Source: Escherichia phage EcF-vB. Taken from it: DNA of 64,000 nt. The stretch lies in the sequence record PV683228.1. One strand, given 5' to 3'. Position numbers and translations under genes: made by a program. The number at the start of each line of letters is the position of its first letter. Position 1 is the stretch's first letter. Shown piece by piece: positions 41,672 through 42,745 of the stretch. The notes under the pieces were generated by a model. The model was not told the origin of the DNA and made no database searches. It saw only the letters and a program-made list of their open reading frames with translations.

Positions 41672-42745
41672 AGATGGCTCTTTCAACGTCTGGTCATGTG
41701 TTGCTGTAGGTGACAAAGTTATTACAACCTACGGTAAAGAAAATGGCAAGATGATGTTTGAAGAGTATACAGCAGAACCTAAAAACATCGGTAAAAAGAA
41801 TGAGCGTAATGCTGAACAGCAAGCTCTCTTGAAGTTGCTGCTAAGTATAAAAAGCAAGTCGACCGTAAGGGTTACGCTTACACAAAAGAGTCTGCACAGA
41901 ATACTGAGAAGGTAGGTGTACAGCTTGCTCATGATGCTGCAAAGGTTAGTCATGCAAAGTATCTGAAGTTCCCTGCTGATGCTCAACCAAAACTTGATGG
42001 TGTCCGTTGTAGAATTTCAAGAGATGCTGATTCAGTCAGTTTCACAGCTTATTCTCGTGAGAATACTGTTTACAACGTTCCAACAGAACTAATCCCAGAT
42101 TTGCTTTTGTTGCTTAAATTACATCCGCAAGTTGAAGACTTTGACGGAGAGATTTATGCTCATGGTTGGGACTTAGAAGATATTGTATCTATGATTAAGA
42201 ATGCTGACAATCCAGACCGTCACCTTCTTAAATTCTACTGGTATGATATCTGTGACAATTCAAAATCTTGGCCTGAGCGTCGTGAAGTTATTGATAACTC
42301 ACCTATTGTCGAGCTTGGTGATACCTGTAGGGTGGTTCCTGTACAGACTATCCGTGTTAACTCTTGGGGAGAGTTTGATGAAGCTCATGATAAGTGGGTT
42401 GAAGCTAAGTTTGAAGGTGCAATGTACCGCTCAATCTCTGAAGAATCTTTCTACGAGTGTGGTCACCGTTCATACTTCTTGATTAAGCACAAGAAGATGC
42501 ACACTGAAGAGTTTAAAGTGACTGGTGTCAAGACCGATAAGCGTGGTCATGGTAAGTTCGTTGTAGAGACTCTTCCTAACGTCTTTGTAGATGTTTCATG
42601 GAAAACTACACACGAGAAGAAACAGTATCTTGCTGAACATCCTGAAGAGTTTATCGGGAAACCTTTAACGGTTCAGTTCCAGAAGATGACTCGTAAGGGG
42701 TCTTTACAGTTCCCTGTTGGGTTAGTTATACGAGATTATGAATAA
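41646..42745 (+). CDS. ATP-dependent DNA ligase, N-terminal 60-70 codons in a different frame from the catalytic core
   Basis: Motif I KLDGVRC lies in a frame open from 41816 with no start codon before it; downstream motifs DGEIYAHG, EGAMYR, FLIKHKK; one extra A in the A5 run 41849-41853 fuses the frames. Confidence 0.7.

Follow-up and report, generated by a model that had tools for sequence, protein, structure and literature searches.

A missing T in codon 62 splits the DNA ligase gene in the sequence of Escherichia phage EcF-vB, very probably through a base-calling or assembly artifact

Frame structure of the ligase locus

How could a phage make a DNA ligase whose catalytic core lies in a reading frame with no start codon of its own? 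The question is raised by a locus in the sequence of Escherichia phage EcF-vB (PV683228.1), of which a stretch of 64,000 nucleotides, hereafter the window, was analyzed. The frame of the ligase core is open on the plus strand from 41816, following a TGA at 41813 to 41815, to a TAA at 42743 to 42745. A sequence-only reading of the locus had claimed that this frame contains no ATG, GTG, or TTG before motif I, and a codon scan bore this out: motif I (KLDGVRC) begins at 41990, and the first of the three start codons is a TTG at 42101, 111 nt downstream of KLDG, its position making it unusable for an active ligase. The sole near-cognate codon of the core frame before motif I is a CTG at 41963, while ATT 42014 and ATC 42092 both lie 3' of the motif.

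The same reading had found the sole upstream start in an ORF of another frame, and its coordinates are confirmed by the ORF list and its translations. This 89-aa ORF runs on the plus strand from the ATG at 41646 to a TGA at 41913 to 41915, and its frame overlaps that of the core over 100 nt, from 41816 to 41915. The ATG at 41646, which is not in the core frame, is the only usable start for the ligase. It is preceded by a Shine-Dalgarno-like sequence (Table 1), and the annotation of phage Mushroom has a ribosome-binding site at the matching relative place. The two ORF pieces match adjoining parts of the PHROG 114 profile (positions 108 to 188 and 182 to 501). These adjacent profile parts, together with the one CDS of the relatives, argue that the two-frame pattern is not due to chance. 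The part of the 89-aa ORF beyond 41830 is predicted to be no genuine coding sequence, given that every relative uses the other frame there.

Table 1. Features of the ligase locus and window-specific one-base deletions found elsewhere in the window
Feature	Position	Strand	Remarks
Shine-Dalgarno-like AGAGGTG	41635..41641	+	4 nt 5' of the ligase start codon; read from the sequence
Ligase codons 1 to 61 (M1 to L61), the larger part of the N-terminal DNA-binding-type domain	41646..41828	+	Frame of ATG 41646
Lesion site, TT where the compared relatives have TTT (codon 62, Phe)	41829..41830	+	Alignments
Ligase codons 63 to 366 and stop TAA	41831..42745	+	-1 frame relative to the start codon
Out-of-frame tail of the 89-aa ORF, KLLLSIKSKSTVRVTLTQKSLHRILRR then TGA	41831..41915	+	Translation
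A5 run, lesion site suspected in the sequence-only reading	41849..41853	+	Not the lesion
Motif I KLDG, adenylated lysine K116 of the restored protein	41990..42001	+	Translation, motif search
First ATG/GTG/TTG in the core frame, a TTG	42101..42103	+	ORF list, codon scan
i-spanin	7963		C4 to C3
Nicotinamide phosphoribosyltransferase (NAMPT)	17974		T6 to T5
NrdD	24243		T5 to T4; 665 aa from what is now the first ATG, against 714 aa
GIY-YIG endonuclease	30093 and 30303		Both T6 to T5
5'-3' exonuclease	30701		T6 to T5
DNA polymerase	38399		GAAAAGAG to GAAAAAG; 337 + 560 aa instead of 906
mio_79 homologue, 3' end	46903		One-base deletion
Intergenic	59426		Window-specific one-base deletion
Virion protein mio_97	62343		T6 to T5

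A conserved ligase gene that is one base short

To judge from its closest matches, the window is the genome of a Felix O1-like myovirus of the genus Felixounavirus. The ligase with its surroundings (1.4 kb) matches 259 phage records, Escherichia phage mio being the best (98.4%), and an 18.8-kb stretch of the window is 96.9% identical to mio. Nucleotide identity to Felixounavirus relatives is 96 to 98% in the ligase region (41400 to 42800). Felixounavirus ligases are the same gene at the same genomic position, 3' of the DNA polymerase gene and some small ORFs. In Felix O1 (ORF88, NP_944942.1), mio (mio_69, QIG66619.1), Mushroom, GEC_vB_B1, and VpaE1_ev035, the ligase is a single CDS of 1,101 nt with a start equivalent to 41646. 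The comparison with the ligases of related phages, which had been suggested as a check on the locus, therefore sets one CDS of 366 aa in the relatives against a window copy that falls short by exactly one base, at CTC-TT(T)-GAA; unlike the relatives, the window lacks one T of Phe62 and consequently has an 89-aa ORF and a start-less core. Two arrangements that would have given the locus another meaning had also been named, and neither was found: there is no internal start for the ligase core in frame before motif I, and the N-terminal ORF is fused in the 366-aa CDS of the relatives instead of being a separate conserved gene.

The alignment of the window with Felix O1, mio, Mushroom, and GEC_vB_B1 has a single gap, one T of the Phe62 codon. 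The relatives read GCT CTC TTT GAA GTT (A L F E V) where the window reads GCTCTC-TTGAAGTT, and UAB_Phi87 and VpaE1_ev035 likewise have TTT at this codon. The sequence-only reading had proposed that one extra A in the A5 run would repair the gene; it was right about a single missing base and wrong about its place, the shortened T run lying 20 nt 5' of the A5 run. This run and its flanks (TATAAAAAGC) are identical in mio, UAB_Phi87, and VpaE1_ev035, in which the ORFs are intact. A T inserted after 41830 gives a 366-aa protein identical to that of mio, reading ...NAEQQALFEVAAKYKKQVDRKGY... across the junction. Adding an A instead also opens the frame again (...LLKLLLSIKKQVDRKGY...), but turns FEVAAKY into LKLLLSI and scores 318.3 bits against PHROG 114, 5.9 bits under the 324.2 bits of the T-restored protein. 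The A5 run was consequently rejected as the site of the missing base, being unchanged in mio and leaving the T-restored protein as the only one identical to mio's.

The protein of mio also accounts for both pieces of the gene as given. In tblastn, the part before the lesion matched mio ligase residues 1 to 60 at 100% amino acid identity, and the part after it, with the end of the N-terminal domain, the adenylation domain, and the putative OB domain, matched residues 62 to 366 at 99.7%. At the nucleotide level, the T-restored gene differs from that of mio at 21 positions in 20 codons, of which 20 are synonymous and none is non-synonymous; 32 to 44 synonymous and 6 to 8 non-synonymous codons separate it from the genes of Felix O1, Mushroom, GEC_vB_B1, and VpaE1_ev035. 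Differences so dominated by synonymous changes indicate that purifying selection has acted on both halves, as one fused frame, until the present.

The T-restored protein matches PHROG 114, "ATP-dependent DNA ligase," over residues 3 to 366, and Pfam PF01068 (adenylation domain) over residues 94 to 283 (34.6 bits, cut-off 26.2). For PF14743 (OB domain) it reaches 23.3 bits, under the cut-off of 28, and the PHROG 114 match extends to the C terminus. Motif I (KxDG), with the lysine that is adenylated, is present as KLDG at residue 116, and a pattern search found DGE at 167, FYWYD at 197, EGAMYR at 257, and LIKHKK at 279, which we take to be the nucleotidyltransferase motifs III, IIIa, IV, and V. 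An uninterrupted frame that begins at a start codon, passes through motif I, and reaches the putative OB domain is absent from the window as given and present after one T is added.

Among solved structures, the best match of the restored protein was the DNA ligase of African swine fever virus (ASFV; PDB 6imj/6imk/6iml/6imn; E = 1.3e-6, 31 bits). It is a distant one, with low score and identity, to a 419-aa protein of a eukaryotic virus. The alignment with 6imj covers query residues 24 to 323 and passes through the frameshift junction into the adenylation domain, and a motif of the N-terminal domain, KN(I/L)GKKN...QA...KY, is common to the ASFV ligase and the restored phage ligase. Since the alignment starts in the N-terminal domain and crosses the junction, the 89-aa ORF makes up most of the N-terminal domain of the ligase itself and is no separate gene. 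In the ASFV ligase structure paper, this domain is described as unique to that ligase (PMC6344480); a function for the N-terminal domain of the phage ligase could be proposed by analogy with this alignment only. The DNA ligase of Chlorella virus PBCV-1 (PDB 1p8l, 2q2t, 1fvi), a minimal ATP-dependent ligase, aligns through its adenylation domain with query residues 98 to 287 (E = 8e-6 to 1e-4); as the alignment starts at residue 98, it has no counterpart of the ca. 90-aa N-terminal domain carried by the broken ORF.

Absence of the deletion from relatives

For the 81-nt stretch across the deletion, we inspected 120 alignment rows, namely the 60 best of 188 megablast hits plus 60 spread evenly over 258 blastn hits. 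In 119 of the 120, the span in the record equaled that of the query plus one base. The single exception, MG969407, is flagged UNVERIFIED and has, in the alignment, TTT at the lesion site and single-base deletions of its own nearby. Neither a broken ligase nor a two-frame arrangement was seen among the ca. 120 relatives inspected. A short-query BLAST against phages returned no 100% match to the 81-nt stretch across the deletion among 258 records, and the exact 22-mer spanning it had no match in IMG/VR.

The excepted record has a companion, MG969405, and the two (GE_vB_BS and GE_vB_B1, respectively) are unannotated Felixounavirus records that are likewise indel-ridden. Both have several short-run single-base deletions in the ligase gene, e.g., TT to T or AAAA to AAA, and the match of GE_vB_B1 spans 1,390 bases for a query of 1,401. 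The positions of these deletions differ from that in the window, and GE_vB_BS has TTT at the site where the window has lost a T. Indel-ridden assemblies of Felixounavirus (MG969405.1 and MG969407.1) thus exist in public databases.

One-base deletions elsewhere in the window

The whole window was compared with the mio genome, 83 mio proteins were searched against the window by tblastn, and each site was checked against two to four references (mio, Felix O1, UAB_Phi87, and VpaE1_ev035). Besides that in the ligase, at least nine further window-specific one-base deletions were found in coding sequence, and another one is intergenic (Table 1). In the tblastn search, the products listed by site other than the mio_79 homologue, together with the ligase, showed a frame switch or the loss of the N terminus. 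The DNA polymerase, for instance, is split into pieces at 37416 to 38429 and 38462 to 40144. The effect is slightest in the mio_79 homologue, which loses at most its last codon, residues 1 to 63 of 64 matching in one frame.

All of these events are deletions, and genes on both strands are affected. Their frequency depends on the length of the run: 5 of the 26 T6 runs and 1 of the 6 A6 runs are shortened, compared with 1/94 for T5, 1/305 for T4, and 2/885 for T3. A strand bias of T runs over A runs was considered and dropped, the rates per run being similar (T6 and A6 above). Overall, there is about one lesion per 4 to 5 kb, which corresponds to an expectation of about 0.2 to 0.25 in the 1.1-kb ligase gene, so that a hit there is unsurprising.

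Origin of the frame break

We infer a technical cause, and consider it very probable that the split of the ligase is a base-calling or assembly artifact. The phage itself would then carry a normal single ligase gene of 366 codons, which appears split for want of one T in the TTT of Phe62. The missing T would be a base-calling or consensus error and no property of the phage, in an assembly that may under-call single bases at many places, mainly in homopolymer runs, and so break indispensable genes. What favors this origin is that simultaneous frameshifts in the DNA polymerase, the exonuclease, the ribonucleotide reductase, and a virion protein are impossible for a strictly lytic phage. The steep rise with run length is also typical of homopolymer errors. 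Some sequencing chemistries are known to fail in this way, with homopolymer indels that go in one direction and depend on run length. For pyrosequencing reads, one study describes high indel rates in homopolymers, which create frameshifts (PMC3115854). A literature search on Felixounavirus, homopolymers, and frameshifts found nothing specific to the genus.

The point that counts against an artifact is the lesion itself, T3 being short for a classic homopolymer error and seldom hit by the error process of the window (the two T3 runs out of 885). It also speaks for a real and recent loss of function, by which the phage would be left with an 89-aa fragment and no ligase of its own, its nicks being sealed by the NAD-dependent LigA of the host. 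The frame break is, after all, present in the sequence as given, and some phages, e.g., T7, can do without their ligase on ligase-proficient hosts. However, the deletion in the DNA polymerase gene also lies outside a long run, which means that the errors of the assembly are not confined to long homopolymers. The 305 codons downstream of the break are identical in protein to those of mio, with synonymous changes only and no sign of decay, and a broken ligase was found in none of the relatives inspected. A real knockout would be accompanied by at least nine other deletions, one of them in the DNA polymerase, and these cannot all be real in a lytic phage that forms plaques. We regard such a knockout as improbable.

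In another reading, the deletion is real and would be corrected by ribosomes. The core frame is regained by a -1 shift at any point of the 100-nt overlap, the A5 run falls inside the overlap, and the translational correction of indels is a documented phenomenon (PMC5009743). The candidate event is slippage of the P-site tRNA-Lys on A_AAA_A (41849 to 41853), with the product ...LLSIKKQVDRKGY..., and full-length ligase would be made by -1 slippage between 41816 and 41915. Overlapping frames, a downstream frame in -1, and an A-rich run are likewise found in programmed -1 frameshifting, as in dnaX (A_AAA_AAG) or the G/GT tail chaperones of phages, but at the ligase locus a canonical heptamer and a stimulatory structure are both missing, and the relatives do not share the arrangement. 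Read in the frame of ATG 41646, the overlap from 41816 to 41915 contains no canonical slippery heptamer; there is only A_AAA_AGC (41849 to 41855), in which re-pairing is limited to the P site and which departs from the form X_XXY_YYZ, its AGC being unable to re-pair after a -1 shift. No stimulatory RNA structure was found 3' of the A5 run, the segment 41856 to 41935 folding no more stably than its shuffled versions (-16.6 kcal/mol versus a mean of -16.2; z = -0.16), and Rfam at gathering thresholds had no match in the window. No defining feature of programmed frameshifting is present at the ligase locus. Moreover, mio has an identical A5 run with identical flanks in a gene of one frame, so nothing has evolved here for recoding; the two-frame arrangement occurs in no relative; and the slippage product swaps seven conserved residues, at the lower of the two PHROG 114 scores (318.3 versus 324.2 bits). 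Translational correction of a real deletion is accordingly highly improbable, and just as little credence can be given to its weaker form, in which low-level, unprogrammed -1 slippage in the overlap, e.g., on A_AAA_A, yields a working ligase; if true, this would be a natural translational rescue of a fresh frameshift in a replication gene of a lytic phage. Least probable of all is a genuine two-part ligase, with a separate N-terminal domain protein and a core translated from a non-canonical start. The near-cognate CTG at 41963 is in the core frame and 5' of motif I, as this would require, but no ATG, GTG, or TTG and no promoter-like site on the plus strand precede the core and motif I, the relatives have a single fused CDS, and both the PHROG 114 match and the alignment with the ASFV ligase continue across the junction.

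Neighboring features

Directly 5' of the ligase, on the plus strand, is a 72-aa Cys-rich ORF (CRCGSNC...CNAC; 41453 to 41671) that overlaps the ligase start by 26 nt and belongs to PHROG 5768, a family of unknown function. Labels of the type "DNA ligase (x2)" in relatives were considered as possible cases of a split ligase and rejected, the second "ligase" being this unrelated 72-aa ORF, mislabeled in several GenBank records (mio_68, GECvBB1_gp104c).

On the 3' side, the intergenic region 42746 to 43008 is variable among relatives. Compared with the window, mio is longer by 149 bp directly behind the stop codon and by 20 bp at 42877; in other relatives, the match spans about 150 to 680 bp more than the query. 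The region contains two strong sigma-70-like sites (TTGACA-16-TATACT at 42752 to 42779 and TTGACA-17-TATTTT at 42936 to 42964), and no Rfam family matched within it.

Farther away, the lysin gene is separated from rIIB by a ca. 2.2-kb accessory island with genes on the minus strand (9863 to 12039), which mio lacks and only 10 phage records contain. One of its genes (11005 to 11904) encodes a 299-aa N6-adenine DNA methyltransferase-like protein (PF02384, 24.3 bits, TNPPFG motif), and the 279-aa and 86-aa proteins also encoded there have no Pfam match. Between small early genes, from ca. 236 to 5221, an intergenic element of ca. 80 to 110 nt is repeated, with the core TTGAATCTCC(T)AGTTTA(A)GG ... 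GGGGA(A)GGTCATTCCCTCCCGTTGAT. It cross-matches many positions of mio at 82 to 98% identity, and the repeats probably carry putative promoter or terminator units.

Consequences for annotation

Naive annotation of the locus yields either a truncated N-terminal fragment or a false "ligase" of 214 aa that starts at the TTG and is devoid of the catalytic lysine. The DNA polymerase, NrdD, exonuclease, NAMPT, i-spanin, and virion protein are likewise mis-called from the sequence as given. Polishing or resequencing is needed before conclusions at the gene level are drawn from the window, and any other odd ORF or frame reported from it calls for comparison with the one-base deletions listed here. The useful outcome is an exact repair, a T after 41830, together with the warning that the window holds at least ten single-base deletions in coding sequence. 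As for the phage, the gene is predicted from its sequence to be an ordinary, conserved member of the ATP-dependent DNA ligase family, with nothing new biologically; a single uninterrupted ORF is the only family trait that it lacks, a defect confined to the present copy of the sequence.
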